Shown: positions 1,663 to 37,163 of the stretch, piece by piece | Numbering within the stretch: the first letter of the stretch is position 1 | Layout of the letters: each line of letters starts with the position of its first letter | Source of the DNA: a virus | Taxonomy: Duplodnaviria; Heunggongvirae; Uroviricota; Caudoviricetes | IMG/VR virus record: IMGVR_UViG_3300013004_000034 | Reading direction: 5' to 3' (one strand) | Length of the DNA: 42,217 nucleotides | Program-made: the position numbers and the translations under genes | The notes under the pieces: model-generated | What the model was told of the DNA's origin: nothing | The model's input: only the letters and a program-made list of their open reading frames with translations | The model's database searches: none

Positions 1663-4600
1663 ATTGGAAGTGCAGCAACAGCTGCTAGTAAAGCACTATC
1701 AGTAATTGCATACGGTAGAATTTGTACGGTTTTAATTTGACCAAACAGTGCCATAGAATCCGCTCCAGAGAATGATGTCCAACTTGATCCAATTCTTGCG
1801 GTAATTAAAGTTGGATCCGGTCTCCATGGTATAGTAATTACAGAACCTCCATTTACACACCCTCTAACTGTGGCTGTAGCCGAAGATACTACAAACCCAG
1901 CCCTAACAACTTGACCTCTAAAATCTGTACTAGACAACTCTGTTGAAGTAGCACCACTAACACTATTGCGTGCCGCAAGATTCATCCTACCTGATCCGAC
2001 CAATCCTAGGGCGCCGGCGCTATTAAATTCATCGCGTCTTAAATTAATTAATGGTGCCGCTGTACTTGTAGGATATGTTGTAGGCATTAGTCCGGATACC
2101 AATACTGTACAATCACTATCGATGTTAATACCATAATTTGTCAAAGGAACGGTCAAAAGATCGGCATCTCTTGTACTTGCAGCCAATGTACCAATTGGCG
2201 GTAGTATTGGCGAGGATGGCATGCCGCCAAGTTCAAGTTGGGGCCACGCAAGATCATAAGTGAAATCATAGGTAACACCAACTACGCCTTCAAATCGCAT
2301 TGTGTAGCGGGCATTATTGGTGCTTACTCCCGTGATCGTGCGGGTCGCAAACGCTCGAGACCAGCCGGCTTCCAGGGCTATGGCCGCCATGGTGATGGAA
2401 CCGGTAGAGGTACCCGTGTATTCACGCACCTCTACCTGTAGATTGAATCCTGCCTGTGACCCGGATACAAGACGATGAAAGACGGATGATGTTACCTGTT
2501 GAGCTAGGGAACATGACACTTGGTACGAGCTGGTCAGCCGAGTGGTGACGCCAGTCGATGTACCGAATAGGCGCAAGCGGACAAACTGCAGTCCGTCAGC
2601 AACACCAGTCCCGATAACCTCCATCGCAAGGCCGCTGGGCGTGCCGCTGGACCCGCTAAGGCCCCAATTGGTTGGTCCGGACCCGCCTGATCCCAGAATC
2701 CCCGGGAACGTTCCCTCGCCACGGGGATTGCCGAATGAATTGGTTCTAGCACTTTCAAATAATAGTCCGCCATATGTAGCTATACCGGTATAGTTATATC
2801 TAGGTATATTTACTCCAGCCGTATCATACTGACTGACAATGTTAAGGAACGAAGCATTAGATGCACGTGTAAATGTTGCAGTATTAGCAACAAAGTTAGT
2901 ATCGACAACCGTGTATATTATTGTGTTAGATTGAGATGAGCTGCTGTTTGAAAGTAGAGAAACATCATCAAACAGCAGCTCGGATGATCTATATCTACCA
3001 AATAATTTATGTCCAGCTGGATGTATTAGATCTTTTACAAGACCTTCATACGTATCTAGCATTCTCTTTACAACAACTTCGTATGAGTAGATCTGATAAT
3101 AGTCACTATCCTGGATATTGATGATATCACTTAAGAATCCTCTTGAATTCTTCCAATAACCTAGGCCTCTACCATCTGAACTTACCACTGCTACGCCAGA
3201 AATAGTTACACCGGCATTATCACTAGTGATAATAACTTTTTCTCCGGGTACATATCCAAAGCCTGAGTCATAAACTTCGACTGCCGTAACAACACCTTGT
3301 TCACTACTCACCTTTGCATCAACAACTGCATTGTGTCCTTTTACACCGCCAGTATCATCAGCTATTTCCATTAATGCAACATCGGTTTCAATTATATCAA
3401 CATACGGTGGACTTGAATAACCGGATCCTGGATTGATATTCTTTAGATACGCAATAGTACCAACTTCAAGATCGTAGATATCCAGGACTTCTTCTATCTT
3501 TCGGTCCAAGTTTGCCGGAGATGTTGAAGGGAATATCCAGTCAGTCAGACTTTCTTGTGAAGTAATGTTGGCATTAGATGTAGGATTGCCAATATCCACT
3601 ACAGTAGCTGTAGGCACAAAGTACATGTGATCACCCAATGTATTGGCCACAATTGCTGAACTGTTTGCAGTAAATATTGAACCGTTTCCTATAACGGTTT
3701 CTTTCCCCAAGTAAGTATCAAGATTCAATTCACATAATGATGTATTTCCAATTAGTACAATACCTGGTACAAGATTGGCATTAGTCAAGTCCGATTCGGA
3801 TCCGGTAACTTTTACTATCTTGCTGTCAGTAAAGTACACGTATAGATTTGCAATTCCAAGTGTACTATTTGAAAGCTTTTCATATAAGAGGGCGGTGTTA
3901 GGTGTTGTATAGGTTACTTGTAAAGTACCAGCATTTGCACTTGATCGTACTTGATTACCTACTGTAAACGCACCAGTTGGAGAGTTTATGTATATCCGAA
4001 CTTGTGTCTCTATCTTTGTTGATACATATGAACTGATTTTATCAGTATTGATCCGTAAAATTTCTTTATCAACCAAACCACCGATATCAAAAGTAGCACC
4101 AGAGCCACCACCACCGAACGTATCCACAATAGTTGCCGTAGCGGTTCCATCACTGATGGTATCACCGGTGTTAAAACTCAGACCTGCGCTGAAGTTAATA
4201 AGAGTAAGATAACTAGAATTGGCAAATACCACATTGCCGTTTGCTGATGTTGCAGTACTATATGCATTGCTACCTACAGTAAAGCTACCTGTTGTATCAG
4301 ATATTAATATATTAATTGTTGTAGCTACAGTTACAGTAGCATCTAGAGAATATCCAGAACCACCGTTAATGAGATTGAATTGTACCTTACCGTTTTCATT
4401 TCGTACTGCGGCTACTCTAGCCTTACCTTCAGAGCCAGAACCGGTTATACTAAGGATCTCACCTACACTGAATCCAGAACCTCCATTATCTACCGGGATG
4501 GCCGTCAACGATCCGATGATTATTGGAGCGCTATCAATCTGAATGACACCATCACATATAATTTTCTCTCCATATTCAAACTGACCTTGAACCGAGCTCA

Positions 4601-23751: not shown

Positions 23752-24807
23752 TTAGAAAATTGGCCAAAGAGCCCCGCCGTCAGGGCCCTTCACTCGCCGG
23801 GCCCAAGCCGCTCGAATGGCATCATGGGTTATAGCAGGCAGCGGGATGTATTCAAGCCGGGATGCTGCATCACTACCGTTCTTGAAAGCCCAGTCAAAGA
23901 AGCGCATAGCATTGCGACTGCCTGCCACCTTGTCGGCCGTTGGATTGGTCGGCAGCAGGATATAGGTGGGGGAGGTGACCGGCCATACATCCGCGCCGGC
24001 TAGATCAATCGTGTCGGCCGCAAAGTTCGGCACGTTCCAGTCTGCCGTTGCCGCCGTAGCATTAAAGGCAGAAGGCGCTGGTGTCATGAAGTTGCCGGCC
24101 TTGTTGCGGATCTGCGTCGTCGGCATGCGGTTCACGACCGCGTAGGCGTTCTCAATGTAACCGATGGTGCCGGGGCTGTTGCGGATGATGTTGGAAACAC
24201 CCTCATTGCCGCGAGCGCCGTTGCCGACCGGCCAGCGAACTGACGTACCCGCCCCTATGCCATTCTTCCACTCGGTGGAGATGCGCGACAGATAGGTCGT
24301 CCAAACCCAGGTCGTGCCCGAGCCATCGGCGCGGTAGCCAACGGAAAGCGGCAGGTTCGGGATGGTCAGGCCGCGGTTCAGCTCGACGATCCGCGGATCG
24401 CGCCAGCGGGTGATCTTGCCGAGGAAGATGTCGGCAATCACTTCCGGCGTCAGCTTCAGCGCATTGTCGGCGACGCCGGGCAGATTAGCGCTGAGCACCA
24501 CGGAGCCCATGACGGTCGGGAACTGCAGCAGGCTGCGCTCGGCCAGCTGCTCGGTCGTCAGCGGCGCGTCGGAAGCGCCGAAATCGACGGTGCGTGCGGT
24601 GATCTGGTTGATGCCGCCGCCGGAACCGATGGACTGGTAGTTCAGCTGGACCGCGCCGGCATCGCGCGCCTGGGCCGACCAGCGTTCATAAAGCGGGCGG
24701 GGGAAGGTCGCGCCAGCGCCGGTCACAGTCGGAACCTGGGCCATAGCCATAGTTGAAAATGGCATGCTGACTGCAGCTAACATCAGCGTTCGCTTAGTAA
24801 TGTTCAT
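23752..24807 (-). CDS. pstS: Phosphate ABC transporter substrate-binding protein PstS
   Basis: VTGAGATFPRPLY...NYQSIGSGGGINQI...VDFGASDAPL...RADGSGTT...GNEGV...IGYIENAYA; N-terminal signal peptide. Confidence 0.97.
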   Translation of the reverse strand: MNITKRTLMLAAVSMPFSTMAMAQVPTVTGAGATFPRPLYERWSAQARDAGAVQLNYQSIGSGGGINQITARTVDFGASDAPLTTEQLAERSLLQFPTVMGSVVLSANLPGVADNALKLTPEVIADIFLGKITRWRDPRIVELNRGLTIPNLPLSVGYRADGSGTTWVWTTYLSRISTEWKNGIGAGTSVRWPVGNGARGNEGVSNIIRNSPGTIGYIENAYAVVNRMPTTQIRNKAGNFMTPAPSAFNATAATADWNVPNFAADTIDLAGADVWPVTSPTYILLPTNPTADKVAGSRNAMRFFDWAFKNGSDAASRLEYIPLPAITHDAIRAAWARRVKGPDGGALWPIF

Positions 24808-25599: not shown

Positions 25600-25676
25600 T
25601 GGAGGCCGTGGAGGGATTCGAACCCCCATCGTAGAGTTTAGAAGACTCCTGACTTATCCAGTTAGACCACACGGCC
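25600..25676 (-). tRNA. trnR: tRNA-Arg(UCU)
   Basis: GGCCGTG/CACGGCC acceptor, GGAGT-CTTCTAA-ACTCT anticodon arm, GGGGG-TTCGAAT-CCCTC T-arm, encoded CCA. Confidence 0.92.
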
Positions 25677-25686
25677 GTATATGTTG

Positions 25687-25715
25687 ATTATATATGGAAC
25701 TTAGATATTTGTCAA
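25687..25715 (-). promoter_or_regulatory. Sigma70-type promoter for the tRNA-phosphatase-pstS unit
   Basis: TTGACA-17-TATAAT, perfect consensus. Confidence 0.85.
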
Positions 25716-29196: not shown

Positions 29197-29225
29197 ATCA
29201 TATCATGTTTTGGGGAAGTTGTCAA
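29197..29225 (-). promoter_or_regulatory. Sigma70-type early promoter
   Basis: TTGACA-17-TATGAT. Confidence 0.75.
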
Positions 29226-29234
29226 TAAAAAAGT

Positions 29235-29418
29235 TTAGCTATAGCGCCAGTACTTGCCCCCGCGACGGTAGTGGCGGGCATTCGGATTGTTCTTGCCGAG
29301 ACGTCCCTTTACCGCAAGGCGGCATCGCGGCCGCGATCCATTAGCTCCGAGCTGAGAATTGACCTTGCTGATCGTTGTTAACAACACCGACAAAGCTAGT
29401 AGAATTGCGAGTCGTCAT
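29235..29418 (-). pseudogene. Small early gene apparently split by a one-base frame change
   Basis: ATG at 29418 (GAGGG upstream) gives 25 aa ending at 29341. An overlapping frame without ATG reads ISKVNSQLGANGSRPRCRLAVKGRLGKNNPNARHYRRGGKYWRYS* ending at 29235. Confidence 0.35.
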
Positions 29419-29445
29419 GTGTTCTGTTTCCCTCTTGATGAGACC

Positions 29446-29510
29446 ATTATACCAGGATAGACGTATCGAGTCAACAGAAGTTTTATTACAATTACATAAT
29501 CCGGTATACC
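29446..29510 (-). promoter_or_regulatory. Early promoter cassette copy C
   Basis: GGTATACCGGATTATGTAATTGTAATAAAACTTCTG-TTGACT-17-TATAAT. Confidence 0.85.
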
Positions 29511-29744
29511 TTAAACCTGCTTCCGCAGGTAGATATAAAGGGTCGGCCGGGAATCTGGCATGCAGCTAACATCGATTCGCAACTGCACGTCCTCTTCCAG
29601 AGCTTCAGCATGCAACTGGTCTCGAAACTCATTCACATTACAAAAGTCAACTACAGTCTTGTATCGTCCGGTCTCGGCAAGAGAAGTCCAAACATCATCG
29701 GTATCAATTTCTGCAACATCGTTAGGAATTCCACAAATAGTCAT
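29511..29744 (-). CDS. Hypothetical early protein (77 aa)
   Basis: AAGGAG upstream of MTICGIPNDVAEIDTDDV; the longer track ORF is probably over-extended. Confidence 0.65.
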   Translation of the reverse strand: MTICGIPNDVAEIDTDDVWTSLAETGRYKTVVDFCNVNEFRDQLHAEALEEDVQLRIDVSCMPDSRPTLYIYLRKQV

Positions 29745-29748
29745 GCGT

Positions 29749-29919
29749 TTATTCTCCTTCCGGGTTATAGATGGTGTCGATTGCTGCTTCACGATCTGGT
29801 GTATTTGCAGCATACCAGTCCTGAGCAGCCTTGATGGTCTTGAATGGACCAACCGTCTTGGTAAACCCACCGTCGATGGTCTGAGTCTTCTCATAGACCA
29901 GGCAGTAGGTCATCTTCAT
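29749..29919 (-). CDS. Hypothetical early protein (56 aa)
   Basis: MKMTYCLVYEKTQTIDGG...; RBS-like AAGGAAGGGA; directly downstream of a promoter. Confidence 0.65.
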   Translation of the reverse strand: MKMTYCLVYEKTQTIDGGFTKTVGPFKTIKAAQDWYAANTPDREAAIDTIYNPEGE

Positions 29920-29947
29920 ACCAACTATTCCCTTCCTTATAGACTGG

Positions 29948-30006
29948 ATTATACCAGGATAGCGGACCTGAGTCAACACTAGTTTTATTAAAAATTTGTA
30001 ATCTTA
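29948..30006 (-). promoter_or_regulatory. Early promoter cassette copy B
   Basis: TAAGATTACAAATTTTTAATAAAACTAGTG-TTGACT-CAGGTCCGCTATCCTGG-TATAAT; 55/59 identical to 31023-31081. Confidence 0.9.
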
Positions 30007-30189
30007 ACTCTTTATGAAGCGCTTGACTATTGCCAGTTCGGACTCAGTCAGTGGAGCCTCGAAGATGACACCCTGGTGAGCCACACGCTCGGCCAGTCGA
30101 GAAAACATGTTGGCCTCTGCATCGATGCGAGAGGTAGTAGCCGCCGAATGGATCTTGGCAAGAAGAGTGGGCATATCCATCATGATCAT
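30004..30189 (-). CDS. Hypothetical early protein (61 aa)
   Basis: AAGGA RBS and its own promoter. Confidence 0.65.
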   Translation of the reverse strand: MIMMDMPTLLAKIHSAATTSRIDAEANMFSRLAERVAHQGVIFEAPLTESELAIVKRFIKS

Positions 30190-30211
30190 GGTTCCTTATT
30201 TCTCACTACCT

Positions 30212-30240
30212 ATTATACACACTTCCGAGATCAAAGTCAA
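30212..30240 (-). promoter_or_regulatory. Sigma70-type early promoter
   Basis: TTGACT-17-TATAAT. Confidence 0.85.
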
Positions 30241-30243
30241 CCC

Positions 30244-30387
30244 TTACTTGGGGTCCTCCTCAAACATTTGTTCCCCAGCTTGTTGCATGATTTCTTCCGC
30301 CTGGCCAGGCGCCATGCCTTTGCTGATGTATTGGCTGATCAGCAGTTCAAGATCCGCAGTAAAAGCTTGGTCCAAAGTGAGTTCCAT
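30244..30387 (-). CDS. Small acidic early protein (47 aa)
   Basis: Not in the track. MELTLDQAFTADLELLISQYISKGMAPGQAEEIMQQAGEQMFEEDPK*; GGAG RBS; first gene after promoter 30414-30442. Confidence 0.65.
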   Translation of the reverse strand: MELTLDQAFTADLELLISQYISKGMAPGQAEEIMQQAGEQMFEEDPK

Positions 30388-30413
30388 GGGGTGGTCTCCG
30401 ATTTGATAGGTGC

Positions 30414-30442
30414 ATTATACCATGGATAGCTATTAAAGTCAA
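30414..30442 (-). promoter_or_regulatory. Leftward early promoter at the divergence point
   Basis: TTGACT-TTAATAGCTATCCATGG-TATAAT. Confidence 0.85.
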
Positions 30443-30451
30443 CTGGTGACA

Positions 30452-30720
30452 AATCAATGGGTTAGCACTAACTTATTGATCTACAACAAACTTTCTACCT
30501 TAGGTTCTTACAATTTTTTCTAATTTTTTTGGATTCAACAACATCAATAGGTTAGCCGAAGCCTCACTACCAGCGATCTAAAGCACCTTAGTGGGTTTAC
30601 CCATCGTTGCTGTGGCTTAGATCGCTGGTGGCTGAACTTTCTGGCTAAACCATTGATCTAATTTACTTTTGGTGCTATCCTATATCCAAGTTAAACCATT
30701 GATCTAATTGACTTTTGATG
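30452..30720. repeat. Five ATCAAT-N3-TTA (IHF-consensus-like) motifs, nested inverted repeats and a 29 bp direct repeat
   Basis: Motifs at 30452, 30469(-), 30542, 30646(-), 30692(-). Direct repeat 30646-30674 vs 30692-30720 (27/29). Perfect 13 bp inverted repeat 30569-30581/30617-30629. Confidence 0.8.
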
Positions 30721-30796
30721 AAAATAGCTACATGTAGGCGCCAAATCCAGCGCCTCAGCTGACCTAGCCCTGTTACAATCTGTTACAAAACTCTTG

Positions 30797-30825
30797 GTGA
30801 CTTTAATAGCGGTTTGTGGTATAAA
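30797..30825 (+). promoter_or_regulatory. Rightward early promoter at the divergence point
   Basis: GTGACT-17-TATAAA; shares TGACTTTAATAGC with the leftward promoter. Confidence 0.7.
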
Positions 30826-30849
30826 GCACCTACCAACACGGAGGCTACC

Positions 30850-31041
30850 ATGGCTTACACCCAGATTGCGGATCGGATCATCGACCTGACCACCGACCTA
30901 GGCTATGGGATCGACATCGACTTCACGGGCCGCAAGCCCATCTCGATCAAGCCTCTCCGCGGTCCTTCCAAGAAGTTCTCCAAGATGGAAGATGCTCTCC
31001 AGTACCTTGAGACCCAGAAGTCTAAGATTACAAATTTTTAA
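30850..31041 (+). CDS. Hypothetical early protein (63 aa)
   Basis: GGAGG RBS before MAYTQIADRII; its C-terminus is encoded by promoter cassette A. Confidence 0.7.
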   Translation: MAYTQIADRIIDLTTDLGYGIDIDFTGRKPISIKPLRGPSKKFSKMEDALQYLETQKSKITNF

Positions 31042-31081
31042 TAAAACTTCTGTTGACTTAGGTCTGCTATCCTGGTATAAT
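31023..31081 (+). promoter_or_regulatory. Early promoter cassette copy A
   Basis: TAAGATTACAAATTTTTAATAAAACTTCTG-TTGACT-TAGGTCTGCTATCCTGG-TATAAT. Confidence 0.9.
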
Positions 31082-31110
31082 GCACCTATCAAAACGGAAG
31101 GAATGATCAT

Positions 31111-31971
31111 ATGCCGAGAGGTGTTTATGCTCGCAAGCCCAAGACCGACAAGTTCCGGGGTAAGCTCGACAGGCTCCTGAACGTGCAGCCGGCTCCGGCA
31201 GTCATCGAGACCGACGAAGAGATCGAAGCCAAGCTGGTTGAACGCTTCGAAGTTCTGGCTGACATGACGCAGGGCGCGATCGAAGGCGACATTCGCGCCA
31301 TGATCGTCTCCGGTCCCGGTGGTCTCGGTAAGTCGTATACGGTCGACAAGACCCTCGCGGCTTGGGATCCGGAAGCCACCGACTACACGGTCGTCAAGGG
31401 TTACGTCAAGACCCCGAGCCTCTACAAGCTTCTCTACAACCATCGTGCTCCTGGCCAGGTGCTGGTGCTCGACGACGCTGACTCGATCTTCAACGACGAC
31501 ACGTCGATCAACCTGCTCAAGGCAGCATGCGACTCCAGCGAGCGCCGGATGCTCAGCTATATGTCTGAGTATATCCTGATCGATGACGAGACGGCCGAGC
31601 GGCTGCCCAAGACGTTCCAGTTCGAGGGCACCATCATTTTCATTACGAACATGGACTTCGACGTGATGATCGACCGTGGCCACAGGCTGGCTCCGCATCT
31701 GGAGGCTCTTGTCTCTCGTGCCCACTATATCGACATGGCCATGAAGACTCAGCGTGACTATCTGGTTCAGATTCGCCTGAAGGTCAAGGCTGGCCTTCTC
31801 GAGAACATCGGTCTCGATGCCGCTGCTCAGGCTGACGTGGTCGAGTTCATCGAGAAGAACTACACCAAGCTCCGTGAGCTCAGCCTCCGGATGGCCCTGA
31901 AGATCGGTTCCAGCCGTCGTCGTAACCGTGCTAACTGGCAGCGCCAGGTCAGAGTTACTTGCATGCGCTAA
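31111..31971 (+). CDS. P-loop AAA-type ATPase
   Basis: Walker A GPGGLGKS, Walker B VLVLDDAD, FEGTIIFITN, ALVSR. Confidence 0.85.
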   Translation: MPRGVYARKPKTDKFRGKLDRLLNVQPAPAVIETDEEIEAKLVERFEVLADMTQGAIEGDIRAMIVSGPGGLGKSYTVDKTLAAWDPEATDYTVVKGYVKTPSLYKLLYNHRAPGQVLVLDDADSIFNDDTSINLLKAACDSSERRMLSYMSEYILIDDETAERLPKTFQFEGTIIFITNMDFDVMIDRGHRLAPHLEALVSRAHYIDMAMKTQRDYLVQIRLKVKAGLLENIGLDAAAQADVVEFIEKNYTKLRELSLRMALKIGSSRRRNRANWQRQVRVTCMR

Positions 31972-31987
31972 TATCTCTAAGCTCGAG

Positions 31988-32008
31988 AAGAAGCGTGGCT
32001 TCTTTGTT
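31988..32008 (+). terminator. Probable terminator after the ATPase
   Basis: AAGAAGC-GTG-GCTTCTT-TGTT. Confidence 0.5.
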
Positions 32009-32037
32009 AAGATGATCAAGAAATTTGCGGAGGCTCT

Positions 32038-32433
32038 ATGAAGATACAGTTTCAAGACTTAAATGGCAACATAACGGAGATTGAAGTGAACGAACCCGAA
32101 CTTCCTGCAGTTGAGACTGTTGATCCACTAAAGACTAATATGTATACCGTACAAATGCATTATGGAGCTACCGGTGAAGGTGCTACATATGCAGTGATGT
32201 ATACGCGCGGTTATGGACCAAATACAGATCCTAAGAAAAATGCGCTTGAAGAATTTGCTCGCGTGTTTGGATCATATTATGCTATAGGGGCTGTTGTACA
32301 TAACGGTATGGTATTTGATTTTTATGGTAGCCATTTGCTAGTATCTGAAAGCCTTAAGACCATGCTGATTGATTATGTGCGTAATGCAGGCGGACTAGAG
32401 TATCACGCTTCTATTCACTATAATTTTTCATGA
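32038..32433 (+). CDS. Hypothetical protein
   Basis: 131 aa with GGAGG RBS. Confidence 0.65.
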   Translation: MKIQFQDLNGNITEIEVNEPELPAVETVDPLKTNMYTVQMHYGATGEGATYAVMYTRGYGPNTDPKKNALEEFARVFGSYYAIGAVVHNGMVFDFYGSHLLVSESLKTMLIDYVRNAGGLEYHASIHYNFS

Positions 32434-32440
32434 GGTCGGC

Positions 32441-32725
32441 ATGCAACTGACACGACAGGATCTTGAAGACATTTGGGAGAATAAGCCGTACGGCTATTTT
32501 TCTAAGATGCTGAGTACCCGCAAGGGTAAAAAGAAGTATCGTGTCATTACAGAACTTCGAAAGACTTCCGTAATTGATACGGATGAACAAGAAGTGTGGG
32601 CTAAGGATGCAACTGCTGCGCAAAGTTTGGTTCATCAATCAGCAACCCTTAGACTTCGTAATAAGCATGGGCTTACCCAATGGGATGGCTTTGTAAACTA
32701 CACTTCCAAGGTGGTTTCTGTTTGA
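32441..32725 (+). CDS. Hypothetical protein
   Basis: 94 aa with GAGG RBS. Confidence 0.65.
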   Translation: MQLTRQDLEDIWENKPYGYFSKMLSTRKGKKKYRVITELRKTSVIDTDEQEVWAKDATAAQSLVHQSATLRLRNKHGLTQWDGFVNYTSKVVSV

Positions 32726-32750
32726 CAACATAAACTTACTATGGTATAAT
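32722..32750 (+). promoter_or_regulatory. Sigma70-type early promoter
   Basis: TTGACA-17-TATAAT with extended -10 TGG. Confidence 0.88.
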
Positions 32751-32773
32751 GACCCTAGTAAAGGAGATAGACT

Positions 32774-33088
32774 ATGAAGCTCATTCTGTGCGAGAAGTGT
32801 AGTGATATAGTTGCTTTAAAGACTGGCATTGATCGCAGCTGTGCTTGTGATCAGTCTGGTGGCCGCTATGTTGATGAGCTAAATGCTGAGGTTTGGGGCC
32901 CTTGCTTTAAGCTTGGCTTTGCTAACTCTTCGCTTATAGCAGCACTTCGAGCACAGAAGTTTGAAGGCGACTCTAAAGAGACTATGATCTACGGTTATAA
33001 GAGAGTCACAAAGGGCCGCGACTTTCAAGCATTTATTATTCCCGAAAGTGCTGACACGATGAAGAGGATTGATAAGCCTAATGTATAA
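32774..33088 (+). CDS. Hypothetical Cys-containing protein
   Basis: CEKCSD...CACDQSGG, possible Zn site; AAGGAG RBS. Confidence 0.7.
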   Translation: MKLILCEKCSDIVALKTGIDRSCACDQSGGRYVDELNAEVWGPCFKLGFANSSLIAALRAQKFEGDSKETMIYGYKRVTKGRDFQAFIIPESADTMKRIDKPNV

Positions 33089-33119
33089 GTTCTACAAGCC
33101 ATGATGGGACTCATTAAGC

Positions 33120-33350
33120 ATGACAGAATCAGTTAAGATTAAATCTTGGGAGTCTATTGATACAGCGCCGATAGACGGTAGTGCCGTCTTGTTGTGGCCA
33201 TATCAATACGGTAATGTTTGGCAAGGCCAGGCCAATAAAGAGGTCGTGCTAGGATATTTTGATGATCGGCGCGAAGAGTGGTTCAATCCAGAAGCTAAAG
33301 ATTGGTTCGAGCCGACTCATTGGACACCTCTTCCAACTCCGCCAGAGTAA
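33120..33350 (+). CDS. DUF551-like small protein
   Basis: WESIDTAPIDGSAVLLW...EPTHWTPLPTPP. Confidence 0.75.
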   Translation: MTESVKIKSWESIDTAPIDGSAVLLWPYQYGNVWQGQANKEVVLGYFDDRREEWFNPEAKDWFEPTHWTPLPTPPE

Positions 33351-33378
33351 AAAATGATCGAGGCTAGGTAGTTGATAT

Positions 33379-33783
33379 GTGGCGCCAAAATGGTCTTATT
33401 TGCTATCAGGTTGCAAAGGGAGCTTATTAATGATTATCGAAACCAAGTTTAATGTTGGCGATATTGTTTGGGTTGCTCGTTCTTATCCAGAAAGTCATCT
33501 TGACTCCATAGTTGTAGATGGAAAGACCTACTGGGCTTCTCATAAGGAGACTACGTATACATTTAATCCTGTTGCTAAGCAAAAGATTATTACTGAATTT
33601 GAGATTAAAATGACCGCGAATGGCATTGATGAAGTTTATTGGGGTCGCAATATTAATTCAGATGATCCTGTAGATTATATTATTTTTTCAACTGGGAGTA
33701 ACCTCATAGTGTTTGATACTGAAGAAGAGGCATATGCTTTTGCTGCAGAGAAGGCTGCTAACGGAGAATCTTTCTATGGCTGA
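33379..33783 (+). CDS. Hypothetical protein
   Basis: IETKFNVGDIVW motif; real start probably Met18 of the track ORF. Confidence 0.65.
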   Translation: MAPKWSYLLSGCKGSLLMIIETKFNVGDIVWVARSYPESHLDSIVVDGKTYWASHKETTYTFNPVAKQKIITEFEIKMTANGIDEVYWGRNINSDDPVDYIIFSTGSNLIVFDTEEEAYAFAAEKAANGESFYG

Positions 33784-34138
33784 AGAAATTATCAATGCTC
33801 AGATCGAAGATACCATGCTTGGTAATGAAGACCACGGCATTCTTACTTTCTATCTGTTTTTGAAGTTTGACGGATCCGGTCAGGGGTTTGGTGGCTATGC
33901 CTTGTCTACGTATGACAAGGAAAAGAAGCGCCGAGTTGGTCATGCCTTTGGTACTGACTGTATCTTGCAAATTCTAGATGTCCTCAAGGCTCGCAAGTGG
34001 GAAGAACTTAGGGGCAAGTATGTACGTGTTAAGCGTGATGCTGGTTGGAGTGGAAAGATTCGTGCTATTGGACATATTGTAGAAGATAAGTGGTTTAATA
34101 TCGAAGATCTGGCAAAGGAGCATTTTCCAAATGACTAG
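33776..34138 (+). CDS. Hypothetical phage protein
   Basis: MAEEIINAQIEDTMLGNEDHGILTF...GQGFGGY...WEELRGKYVRV...IGHIVEDKWF. Confidence 0.7.
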   Translation: MAEEIINAQIEDTMLGNEDHGILTFYLFLKFDGSGQGFGGYALSTYDKEKKRRVGHAFGTDCILQILDVLKARKWEELRGKYVRVKRDAGWSGKIRAIGHIVEDKWFNIEDLAKEHFPND

Positions 34139-34517
34139 GATTTATATAGTTCAGGCTCGTAGCTTTGAGTATAATGACGAGACGTATGATTCCTCTGATG
34201 GAGGAAATGTTGTTCATGCTTATTCTTCCATAGCAGCAGCTGAAACTGCTAAGATTAATGAAACTTTGAATAGCCTTCGAAATGGGTGTCTTAGCTATCT
34301 TGCAGAGCAATATGATGTTCTCGAGGATGCGGCTTATGAGATGCTTGAGAAGTATGGCCTGGAGCCAAAGGCCGAATGGCTTGGCTATTATGAAGCCGAG
34401 GATATCTCTGAGGCAATTAAGAGCGGCAAGATTACAAATGATGATCTGCGTATTCTAGCTACGGGTCTTAAGCCCGGCCGCGAACTTTACTTTATTGAAG
34501 AAGTTGAAATTGATTAA
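34131..34517 (+). CDS. Hypothetical protein
   Basis: 128 aa acidic ORF in an overlapping chain. Confidence 0.65.
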   Translation: MTRIYIVQARSFEYNDETYDSSDGGNVVHAYSSIAAAETAKINETLNSLRNGCLSYLAEQYDVLEDAAYEMLEKYGLEPKAEWLGYYEAEDISEAIKSGKITNDDLRILATGLKPGRELYFIEEVEID

Positions 34518-34538
34518 GGAGTAAGTGTCATTAAGCCG

Positions 34539-34997
34539 ATGGTCCATGCGCGGATTAGCGCTAAGCGCTGGGGTGGAACACCTGAATGCTATCTTGCAAT
34601 CCACGATTTTCTTGATTGCACCAAGATGGCATTGCCTGACATTCGTCATCGCATGATGCTGCATAACTCTGTTGGTTGTTTTATTACAGAGCGTGTGTTT
34701 GGTCATACCATTACCAACTCAGAGAATAAGACTGTTCACGTTCGTGATGTGGCCGAAGCTCATATTATTGAGGACCTTGGCTTTATTCCGACTCTAGAGA
34801 AGTGTTTTAGTAGCATGGCTATTGAAGCATGGATGGGTGGTAAGGTCTCTAAGTATAAAGAAGAGTCTAAGCCTCAGCCTGTAGAGGAAGCGCCGCAACT
34901 TCTTACAGAGAAGCAAGAGACTTATAATGAAAGACATGATCGCCTCTCGCGTGAAATTAACAAGGATAACAAGGGACCATGGGCATTTCAGCCATGA
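34539..34997 (+). CDS. DUF6915-like His-rich protein
   Basis: HARISAKRWGG..CYLAIHDFLDCTK..DIRHRMMLHNSVG..VRDVAEAHIIEDLGFIP. Confidence 0.7.
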   Translation: MVHARISAKRWGGTPECYLAIHDFLDCTKMALPDIRHRMMLHNSVGCFITERVFGHTITNSENKTVHVRDVAEAHIIEDLGFIPTLEKCFSSMAIEAWMGGKVSKYKEESKPQPVEEAPQLLTEKQETYNERHDRLSREINKDNKGPWAFQP

Positions 34998-35380
34998 AGT
35001 TCCATCCGGATGGTTCACTTCCATCTAATGGTGAGATATTTGTCTTTGGCTCTAATTTAGCTGGCCGTCATGGTGCTGGTGCTGCTAAAATAGCACAGAG
35101 TATGTTTGGTGCTAAGTACGGGTTTGGCCGAGGAATTATGGCAAGTTCTTGGGCTATTCCAACTAAGTCTAAAGATTTGCGCACTCTGCCCCTTAGTGAG
35201 ATTAAGGGTTATGTTAGTGATTTTGTAAATTACACTCGACATGCTGATATTAAATTCTTTGTAACTCGAGTTGGCTGTGGTCTGGCCGGTTATAAAGACC
35301 ATCAAATCGCACCTATGTTTAAGGGTGCTAAGAATTGTTCATTTGCCGAAGAATGGCAACCATATCTAGAGGAGATTTAA
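34994..35380 (+). CDS. Phage FVFGSN-family protein (A1S_2505-like, possibly macro-like fold)
   Basis: EIFVFGSNLAGRHGAGAAKIA...SWAIPTK...FFVTRVGCGLAG; ATGA overlap with the upstream gene. Confidence 0.75.
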   Translation: MKFHPDGSLPSNGEIFVFGSNLAGRHGAGAAKIAQSMFGAKYGFGRGIMASSWAIPTKSKDLRTLPLSEIKGYVSDFVNYTRHADIKFFVTRVGCGLAGYKDHQIAPMFKGAKNCSFAEEWQPYLEEI

Positions 35381-35381
35381 T

Positions 35382-35870
35382 ATGAGTGAGTTTGAAAAGG
35401 CTACCGGTGAGGTTAATAAGGTCCTTACTGATTATGAAGATATGATGAAGAAGGTGCAAGAAACTTTGCAGGAGAAGATGAAGGATATCTTTGCTGCATT
35501 CTTTAATACGCATCCTGAAGTTAAGACCATTCATTGGACGCAGTATAGTCCACATTTTAATGATGGCGAAGAGTGTATTTTTAGTGTGAATGAACCGTAC
35601 TTTACGACTCTTGAATATGATGAATTGACTGAACGCTCAGATGCATGGGGCGAGGATGAAGGTGTAATTGAAACTGATAAGTGGGATAATGAGAAGCGTG
35701 AATACGTAGATAATAATATTGCACCCGCTCTTATTGCAGATATGAATACGCTAACTAATATTCTACAGTCAGATGCCAATGAGGGTGTTATGCGTGCTAT
35801 GTTTGATACTAGCGTCTGGGTAAAGGCTCATCGCGGTGGCTTTGATGTGGACGACTTTGACCACGACTGA
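35382..35870 (+). CDS. Hypothetical acidic protein
   Basis: IHWTQYSPHFNDGEECIFSVNEP; GGAG RBS. Confidence 0.7.
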   Translation: MSEFEKATGEVNKVLTDYEDMMKKVQETLQEKMKDIFAAFFNTHPEVKTIHWTQYSPHFNDGEECIFSVNEPYFTTLEYDELTERSDAWGEDEGVIETDKWDNEKREYVDNNIAPALIADMNTLTNILQSDANEGVMRAMFDTSVWVKAHRGGFDVDDFDHD

Positions 35871-35874
35871 TATT

Positions 35875-35938
35875 GTATACCGGATTACAAATTTGTAATA
35901 AAAAGGCCGTTGACAGTCGACCTCAAGCCGGTTATAAT
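35875..35938 (+). promoter_or_regulatory. Early promoter cassette copy D with a perfect 16 bp palindrome
   Basis: GTATACCGG-ATTACAAATTTGTAAT-AAAAAGGCCG-TTGACA-17-TATAAT. Confidence 0.88.
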
Positions 35939-35969
35939 GGCAACATACAGAGGATAAGGAAACACTCCT

Positions 35970-37163
35970 ATGGCAGTCAATTATGACTTTCCGTGTATTG
36001 CGTACTGGCATACCGTTGCCAAGCACTTTGAGGACAATGAGAACTTTGTTATTGTTGACAAGGGTGAGTACTTTGTAGTCAACTATGTGCGGATGGGCAA
36101 GGACACTCATCCGCTGGTTGAATACGGTACTGACTATGCTCGGGCTACGGTGCTGCGTGAAGCCCGTGGCTTAATCTTCTGTTCGAAGACCGGCGAGCTG
36201 CTGTCTCGTCCGTTCCACAAGTTCTTTAACTTGGGTGAACGTGAGGATACCATGGAGATTGATCTCTCCAAGCCTCATGTCATCATGGAGAAGCTGGACG
36301 GCTCGATGATTCGCCCTATCCGTCTTGCATCTGGCATTCGCTGGGGCACTAAGATGGGTGTGACCGATGTAGCTATGCAAGCCGAGGAGTTTGTGGCTAA
36401 GAACCCGCAGTACCAGAAGTTTGCTGATGCTGCGCTAGAGGCCGGCTGGACTCCAATCTTTGAGTGGTGCTCTCGTCAGCAGCGGATTGTGATTGACTAC
36501 CCAGAAGATAAGCTGGTGCTTCTGGCTATGCGTGAGAACTTTACCGGTAGGTATATGGATCGCAAGGGTCTTGTGGCTCTCGGTAAGCTGTGGATCACGG
36601 GCACCGTCATCCCGGTTGTTAACGTGCTCGACATGACTGATCCAGTGCCTTCTCAGGAAGAGCTGGTTGAGATGATCCGTGGCATGTCTGACATGGAAGG
36701 TGTGGTAGTTCAGTTTGCAAATGGCCACATGGTGAAGATCAAGGCCGACCAGTACGTGGCACTGCACCGTGCTAAGTCGTTGCTTGAGAATGAGCGTGAT
36801 GTGGTTGGTCTGGTTCTCGATGAGAAGACCGATGACCTTATGCCACTTCTACCAGTCTCGGATCGTGCGCGTCTTCGTAATTTTGACGTCGATGTGTGGA
36901 CTGATATTTTACACTTTCAAACTGTAGTTAATGCCCTGCTGCGTAGCACCGAGGGTCTTGCACGTAAGGAGTTTGCTATGGCAACTGAAACCATGGATCC
37001 TCTACTCCGTGGTTCTGTCTTTAAGCACTGGGATAATCGTTCTTGCTCTGCTGACTATGTCGTAGAGCTAGTGCGTAAGCATCTTGGTTCTAAGGCGGCT
37101 TACGACAAGGTCAAGCCTATTCTTAAGACTGCTTCCTGGAATGAGAATAAGACCAATGAATGA
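35970..37163 (+). CDS. rnlA: RNA ligase, T4 Rnl1 family
   Basis: REARGLIF...LSRPFHKFFNLGE...EKLDGSMI (motif I)...TPIFEW...MEGVVV...MVKIKADQY. Confidence 0.92.
   Translation: MAVNYDFPCIAYWHTVAKHFEDNENFVIVDKGEYFVVNYVRMGKDTHPLVEYGTDYARATVLREARGLIFCSKTGELLSRPFHKFFNLGEREDTMEIDLSKPHVIMEKLDGSMIRPIRLASGIRWGTKMGVTDVAMQAEEFVAKNPQYQKFADAALEAGWTPIFEWCSRQQRIVIDYPEDKLVLLAMRENFTGRYMDRKGLVALGKLWITGTVIPVVNVLDMTDPVPSQEELVEMIRGMSDMEGVVVQFANGHMVKIKADQYVALHRAKSLLENERDVVGLVLDEKTDDLMPLLPVSDRARLRNFDVDVWTDILHFQTVVNALLRSTEGLARKEFAMATETMDPLLRGSVFKHWDNRSCSADYVVELVRKHLGSKAAYDKVKPILKTASWNENKTNE

Follow-up and report, generated by a model that had tools for sequence, protein, structure and literature searches.

Promoter cassettes in the window

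The virus record IMGVR_UViG_3300013004_000034 of IMG/VR, a stretch of 42,217 nucleotides called here the window, contains four strong promoters that are preceded by the same AT-rich box of 22 bp. Judged from their sequence, the four sites are copies of a predicted early-promoter cassette, which is specific to a clade of uncultured freshwater T4-like phages. By its gene content, the window is part of a divergent, uncultured T4-like myovirus from lake water. It encodes baseplate proteins of the gp5, gp6, gp7, gp48, and gp53 types, as well as gp32, PstS, PhoH, an NrdC.10-like ATPase (38–40% identical to NrdC.10 of T4-type phages), and an RNA ligase of the Rnl1 type. The assignment to the T4-like phages is based on the five baseplate genes, gp32, the NrdC.10-like ATPase, and Rnl1. 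The stretch was contained in 24 lake-water metagenome runs, none of which was an RNA run. Cultured phage records included none that resembles the region or the cassette and none that is closely similar in its DNA. Between 25.7 and 36 kb, the window has about a dozen near-consensus sigma70 promoters, which are directed away from a non-coding hub of 350 bp (30443-30796). The four cassettes and one adjacent hairpin have the following positions:

Cassette A, 31023..31110, plus strand: 22-mer at 31026-31047, with T for G at position 13; -35 (TTGACT) at 31053-31058; TGG and TATAAT at 31073-31081, then a leader with a ribosome site; ATG at 31111, start of the NrdC.10-like ATPase gene.
Cassette B, 29920..30006, minus strand: inverted copy of A; 22-mer at 30003-29982; -35 at 29976-29971; -10 at 29953-29948; ATG at 29919, start of a gene for a 56-aa protein with no known relatives; by position, the orthologous cassette is the one at 332 in contig L078.
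Cassette C, 29419..29510, minus strand: GTATACCG at 29509-29502; 22-mer at 29501-29480, with a decayed left arm (GATTATGTAATTG...); -35 at 29474-29469; -10 at 29451-29446; ATG at 29418, followed by an open reading frame (ORF) of 25 codons only.
Cassette D, 35875..35969, plus strand: GTATACCG at 35875-35882; 22-mer at 35883-35904; -35 (TTGACA) at 35910-35915; -10 at 35933-35938; ATG at 35970, start of the gene for the Rnl1-type RNA ligase.
GC hairpin, 29516..29529, minus strand: CCTGC-GGAA-GCAGG, then TTT, just upstream of cassette C.

The 22-mers of all four cassettes are of the form GATTAYRWAWTTKTAATAAAAM, with the consensus GATTACAAATTTGTAATAAAAC; 18 of the 22 positions are A or T, and the 3' end is located 5 bp before a near-consensus -35 in A, B, C, and D alike. 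The promoters score 11–12 of 12, have spacers of 17 bp and, in three cases, a TG before the -10. In the window, the consensus 22-mer with up to three mismatches gave 3 matches, against 0.00 expected from 100 shuffles, and C is a fourth copy with four mismatches. For TTGTAATAAAA with at most one mismatch, 7 matches were obtained against 1.4 expected. Recurrence of the 22-mer thus exceeds chance.

An earlier note on this DNA described a repeated cassette of about 59 bp. The repeat is real, but the length was underestimated: the full unit comprises about 90–100 bp, from the stop codon of the upstream ORF (at about -70 in the subtype formed by C and D) to the next ATG, and includes a conserved 5' leader with a ribosome site. 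The order of its parts is as follows: upstream stop; TGTATACCG, in one subtype; the 22-bp AT-rich box, from about -62 to -41; 5 bp; a near-consensus -35; a 17-bp spacer ending in TGG (extended -10); TATAAT; the conserved leader (..ATCAAAAGGRA..) and ribosome site; and the ATG, 20–30 nt past the -10. All sequence details given in the earlier note were reproduced. Namely, A and B are identical at 55 of 59 positions, C and D share GTATACCGGATTA-N5-TTGTAATAAAA, the G of GATTAY precedes TTGAC by 27 nt in four of four copies, and A, B, and C share CTATCCTGG before TATAAT. The palindrome in D, ATTACAAATTTGTAAT, is indeed perfect over 16 bp (35884-35899). The 5' part of cassette A does supply the end of ORF 30850-31041 (K I T N F stop); cassette B contains the stop of ORF 30189-30004.

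Conservation and geometry of the box

Further copies, for which the earlier note had suggested looking in relatives, were found by pattern scans in ten other uncultured viral or metagenome contigs. A first pattern, built from the four window copies, led to metagenome contig L075 and viral contigs L076-L078 (the close clade). A less strict pattern, with TTGTAATAA and the two promoter hexamers (-35 and -10) as anchors, led to a sister clade (L080, L083-L086, and L088). All nine foreign copies in the close clade have exactly GATTACAAATTTGTAATAAAAC as their 22-mer, while the promoter spacers differ. The sister clade carries the variant GRTTAAC-NN-TTTGTAATAATTT and a second one, ..AAAAGTTAACAAATC. 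Its ATPase gene is about 69% identical in DNA, and the proteins of the two clades differ by about a third. Cassettes of the sister clade form tandem arrays of up to 14 members (up to 14 in 7 kb of L080 and L085); the window has four to five copies within 6.5 kb. Among 185,579 bacterial species genomes, the exact 22-mer was found once, in an assembly of the Limisphaerales where no promoter accompanies it; this single occurrence was judged to be due to chance and to give no clue to the host.

The information content of the parts of the cassette, in bits per position, was as follows:

22-mer: close clade 1.60, sister clade 1.40.
-35 hexamer: close clade 1.71, sister clade 1.91.
First 14 nt of the spacer: close clade 0.44, sister clade 0.42.
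18 nt upstream of the box: close clade 0.17, sister clade 0.16.

The copies used for these counts were selected on 9 of the 22 box positions and on both hexamers, the other 13 positions being free. The leader past the -10 and the ribosome site are likewise conserved. The low values in the spacer and the high ones in the box indicate that the copies had time to diverge and that selection holds the box.

The position of the box was examined in an unanchored test covering 136 kb in eleven sequences. Of 49 occurrences of the core TTGTAATAA, 46 precede a strong -35 by exactly 17 nt; within 100 nt of a strong -35, it occurred at no other offset and never in reverse. The right half of the box, TTTGTAATAA, is the part that remains constant across both clades, and the left half is much less conserved. 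A rigid distance combined with a single direction fits an element that touches the polymerase.

These data also bear on the improbable idea that the box has no role in transcription. The copies would then be alike through recombination or gene conversion, with the box serving as a selfish or neutral linker or as the target of a recombination enzyme. Cassettes do mark differences in gene content, B looks as if converted by A, in contigs of four lake runs a D-like 22-mer accompanies a C-like core, and crossovers in comparable cassettes of other phages have been placed in an AT-rich region by Arbiol et al. (PMC2839356). Conversion, however, should homogenise the 17-bp spacer as well, yet the spacer shows only 0.4 bits between conserved blocks. 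Also, the exact distance and direction of the box relative to the -35 are kept in both clades, despite a difference of about a third between their proteins, and this geometry points to a working contact with the promoter.

Symmetry of the box

In the close clade, the perfect 16-bp palindrome was present in 10 of 17 copies. The outer ATTA and TAAT are invariant there, and TTA and TAA are retained in 33–37 of 38 copies of the sister clade. This symmetry is in favour of an operator for a dedicated dimeric DNA-binding protein, of the phage or its host, which would switch a sub-class of early promoters on or off; in the 'on' form, it would be a class-I-like activator centred near -53.5. The box is as conserved as the -35 hexamer while spacers drift, and it is found on only about two thirds of the strong promoters (score 11–12 of 12), namely 17 of 27 in the close clade and 38 of 63 in the sister clade, as if marking a discrete class. 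The alternative variant found in the sister clade (..TTAACAAAAGTTAA..) likewise forms a dyad, with an unchanged centre, which would be compatible with a dimeric reader making loose inner contacts. In addition, the shut-off of T4 early promoters is still unexplained (PMC2988021).

We nevertheless consider an operator unlikely, and the 'operator-like dyad' of the earlier note is not supported as worded there. The perfect palindrome is the consensus in the close clade only. All 12 departures from the dyad in that clade are one-sided and none belongs to a compensated pair. In the sister clade, the box persists but its inner dyad is broken: the left-arm C lies one base further in, and pairs 6-13 and 7-12 are mismatched (C-T or A-G) in 29–31 of 38 copies, again without compensatory change. 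The right half is far better conserved than the left, and the core is strictly one-directional. A site at -61 to -46 lies outside the core promoter and is a poor fit for a repressor. No helix-turn-helix or other DNA-binding family was recognised among the 30 neighbouring proteins of the window, which are mostly of unassigned function. The palindrome itself is thus probably not the conserved feature. It most likely arises from two similar AT-rich half boxes (ATTAC.. and ..GTAAT) and would not be under selection as a structure.

The palindrome also lies just upstream of a promoter, where the stem-loops of promoter-early stem-loop (PeSL) cassettes are found (PMC4122927), and could in principle act as an RNA hairpin against transcription entering from upstream, by termination or attenuation. 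This reading was rejected as most improbable. The RNA fold is weak (-3.1 kcal/mol), AU-rich, and followed by AAAAC instead of a U run; its stem pairs show no covariation, and the sister clade is unable to form it. GC-rich terminator-like hairpins were located upstream of only 2 of the 17 close-clade copies. One of these is cassette C (29529-29516), whose hairpin is the sole terminator-like stem-loop of the PeSL type at the four window cassettes.

A further dyad is present in the C/D subtype. Its extension gives TGTA-N8-TACA (35874-35889 in D), which we take to be the form of a site for the CRP/NtcA family, so that a global regulator of the host might act here. The exact motif occurs in D, in L077 at 1113 (1104-1119), and in L075 at 3214 (about 3205-3220), with near matches in C and in L077 at 1454. 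These copies, however, make up one homologous subtype and count as a single event; TACA is already within the conserved box, so only TGTA need arise by chance; the centre is near -63.5 and not -41.5; and the extension is absent from the sister clade. We therefore regard such a site as very improbable, and the motif may be due to chance within one homologous subtype.

Gene content around the cassettes

Variation of gene content between cassette copies, another proposal of the earlier note, was observed: relatives share cassettes, and the flanking genes differ. What contigs L075, L076, and L077 have in common with the window is little beyond the cassettes, to which L076 adds part of the non-coding hub. 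Contig L078 is syntenic with the window at 78–96% identity. Here, the ortholog of cassette B directly drives a gene for a 389-aa protein; in the window, the two are separated by 2.8 kb that contain eight small genes and two further promoters, and the junction lies past the -10 and ahead of the ribosome site. Of 116 alignment breakpoints counted in the sister clade as non-independent BLAST endpoints, 45 fall in cassette intervals that cover 12–23% of the DNA. Proteins flanking the cassettes gave no family matches.

Cassette B has more in common with A than with its L078 ortholog. The spacers of A and B agree at 15 of 17 positions; B and its ortholog agree at 49 of 59 positions overall and at 10 of 17 in the spacer, within a flank that is 92% identical. 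The G-to-T change at position 13 is likewise common to both window copies. This suggests gene conversion between the inverted copies A and B. The module, repeated in both orientations, would thus act as a patch of homology at which genes are gained, lost, or swapped and copies homogenised, a process seen here by comparison rather than by experiment.

Contigs from four lake runs join C (29458-29463) to D (35903-35914) on opposite strands, with a short side of 21–32 letters and 85% likeness. Either a C cassette with the consensus palindrome exists in some strains, or part of the population carries an inversion of the 6.4 kb that separate C from D; these joints were not used as evidence.

Probable function of the box

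On balance, the module is probably a PeSL-like early-promoter cassette, in which the upstream box is a directional docking element of the UP type for RNA polymerase. Host sigma70 RNA polymerase would fire the cassette promoters right after infection. The 22-mer would be an upstream activating element, fixed in position and orientation, which offers extra contacts to RNA polymerase, most probably to its alpha C-terminal domains. The promoters would thus be of the UP/-35/TGn/-10 type, as are T4 early promoters. If transcription starts 7 nt past the -10, the box extends from -62 to -41, with A/T tracts at -56 to -51 and -45 to -42, the positions of UP subsites. Whether alpha itself reads the box is a nearly even question, leaning slightly towards no; reading through an accessory or dedicated factor appears less likely still, though by no means negligible.

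Several observations weigh against this interpretation. The UP consensus of E. coli is AAAWWTWTTTT-NNN-AAA. By a hand count, the box matches it at 9–10 of the 14 specified positions, barely more than the about 7 estimated from AT content, so the UP assignment draws on position and composition. The box holds about 35 bits, including the non-A/T positions C-57 and G-50, which far exceeds the needs of a generic UP element and favours base-specific reading by a protein. A third of the equally strong promoters have no box, so it is not required for promoter strength. In the window, there are at least six such promoters, which served as the comparison class:

Box-less strong sigma70-type promoters: 29197..29225 (minus), 25715-25687 (minus), 27192-27165 (minus), 30240-30212 (minus), 30442-30414 (minus), and 32722-32750 (plus).

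The functions assigned to the promoters and the box are deduced from sequence, and the relevant alpha preferences would be those of the host. As for the part played in gene exchange, the breakpoint enrichment is derived from non-independent BLAST endpoints and the hint of gene conversion from a handful of sites. The earlier note had proposed a regulon of the ATPase and the RNA-repair genes. Box promoters do drive these genes, but they also drive unrelated small genes of unassigned function, and box-less strong promoters are interspersed among them.

Rather than being a generic UP element, the box might serve as a label for a class of immediate-early promoters and be recognised in a base-specific manner by a putative phage factor; we give this a minor share of the probability. 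The factor could be a protein delivered with the virion or expressed first, or the alpha subunit of the host retargeted by the phage. It would recruit polymerase to these promoters or later release it, and the label would offer a handle on how T4-type phages favour, then shut off, their early promoters. Fis and IHF were also considered as readers of the box and rejected, since the consensus sequence of neither fitted the box when compared by eye.

Comparison with known promoter modules

PeSL cassettes are known from the T4-type phages RB49/phi1, T4/PST, and KVP40/nt-1 (Arbiol et al. 2010, PMC2839356; Comeau et al. 2014, PMC4122927), with crossovers suggested to occur in their AT-rich part (Arbiol et al., PMC2839356). 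The likeness to PeSL proposed in the earlier note is supported: the unit occurs in a T4-like phage, recurs in its relatives, and flanks small genes without known relatives, and the intervening genes differ. As in PeSL, a composite intergenic module is repeated among small early genes of this kind, an AT-rich stretch precedes a near-perfect sigma70 promoter, and a ribosome site and ATG form the 3' end. The sequence is specific to a clade, and gains, losses, and swaps between relatives map to the modules. Unlike in PeSL, the stable, usually GC-rich terminator stem-loop, the defining part of PeSL, is missing from most copies. Its place is taken by the AT-rich box of 22 bp, which keeps a strict distance and direction relative to the -35 and equals the latter in conservation; also, the likeness described here is one of sequence. 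All testable PeSL features were found (a sigma70-like promoter, an AT-rich upstream part, ribosome site and start codon, many copies, junctions at the copies) except the stable terminator stem-loop. By these sequence features, the module is a variant of PeSL and not a classical member.

T4 early promoters are of the UP/-35/TGn/-10 type with extra consensus regions, and both their preference by Alt-modified polymerase and their shut-off are unexplained (Hinton 2010, PMC2988021). The cassettes resemble them in having an AT-rich element at the UP position, a -35, TGn, a -10, and extra consensus regions in a T4-type phage (PMC2988021). They differ in that the box is near invariant, with a fixed G and C, and is carried by only part of the strong promoters.

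A third comparison concerns late promoters of the P2 Ogr/P4 Delta type. These are weak and activator-dependent, with a dyad near -55 (TGT-N12-ACA) bound by an activator that touches the alpha subunit of RNA polymerase. Like the cassettes, they have a dyad upstream of the promoter, at a set distance from it and with its centre in the mid -50s. The cassettes differ from them in sequence and in their consensus -35 and -10; no activator gene was found among the 30 neighbouring proteins.

The principle is thus already known; new are the particular box, its near-invariance, and its strict geometry. If read correctly, the cassettes extend the PeSL idea to an uncultured freshwater lineage among T4-like phages and give a sharper version of it, in which the upstream part is a 22-bp box of about 35 bits, at a base-fixed distance and direction to the -35, rather than a terminator hairpin. 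Being short, the box can be synthesised, and the question of whether polymerase reads T4-type early promoters by itself or together with a helper becomes a practical one. The cassettes would also serve as landmarks for early genes and for the seams of gene exchange in metagenomic contigs of the clade.

Other features of the window

A degenerate fifth member of the family was detected:

Fifth member, 30770..30849, plus strand: box CTGTTACAATCTGTTACAAAAC, in the same register, with 13 of 22 consensus matches (nhmmer E 0.004); GTGACT at 30797-30802; TGG and TATAAA at 30817-30825; ATG at 30850; homolog in L076 (promoter 6942, minus strand).

The box of this promoter (30797, plus strand; box at 30770-30791) is a direct repeat (CTGTTACAA twice) and not an inverted one. 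One lake run contained a 37-nt backward joint from 30804 to 30768, which suggests that the repeat varies in copy number.

Downstream of cassette C (29232-29418, minus strand), the 25-codon ORF precedes a GC-rich stretch of about 110 nt, which includes a palindrome with a NotI site. This stretch gave no fold signal (z 0.01) and no Rfam match; the region is probably a decayed module.

Part of the hub (30567-30850) is conserved at 79–86% in L076 (6397-7157), where the flanking genes are not conserved. It contains a pair of direct repeats (30646-30674 and 30692-30720) and could be an origin or a regulatory RNA.

In the region 25600-25715 (minus strand), the box-less consensus promoter at 25715-25687 is located immediately before tRNA-Arg(TCT), which is followed by tRNA-Met at 25301-25226; this promoter is conserved in L078 (1827). 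Finally, pstS (23752-24807, 58% GC) has only weak likeness to positions 2551-3597 of L078, while its neighbours are 80–96% identical. By this comparison, the pstS region looks like a hot spot of replacement.

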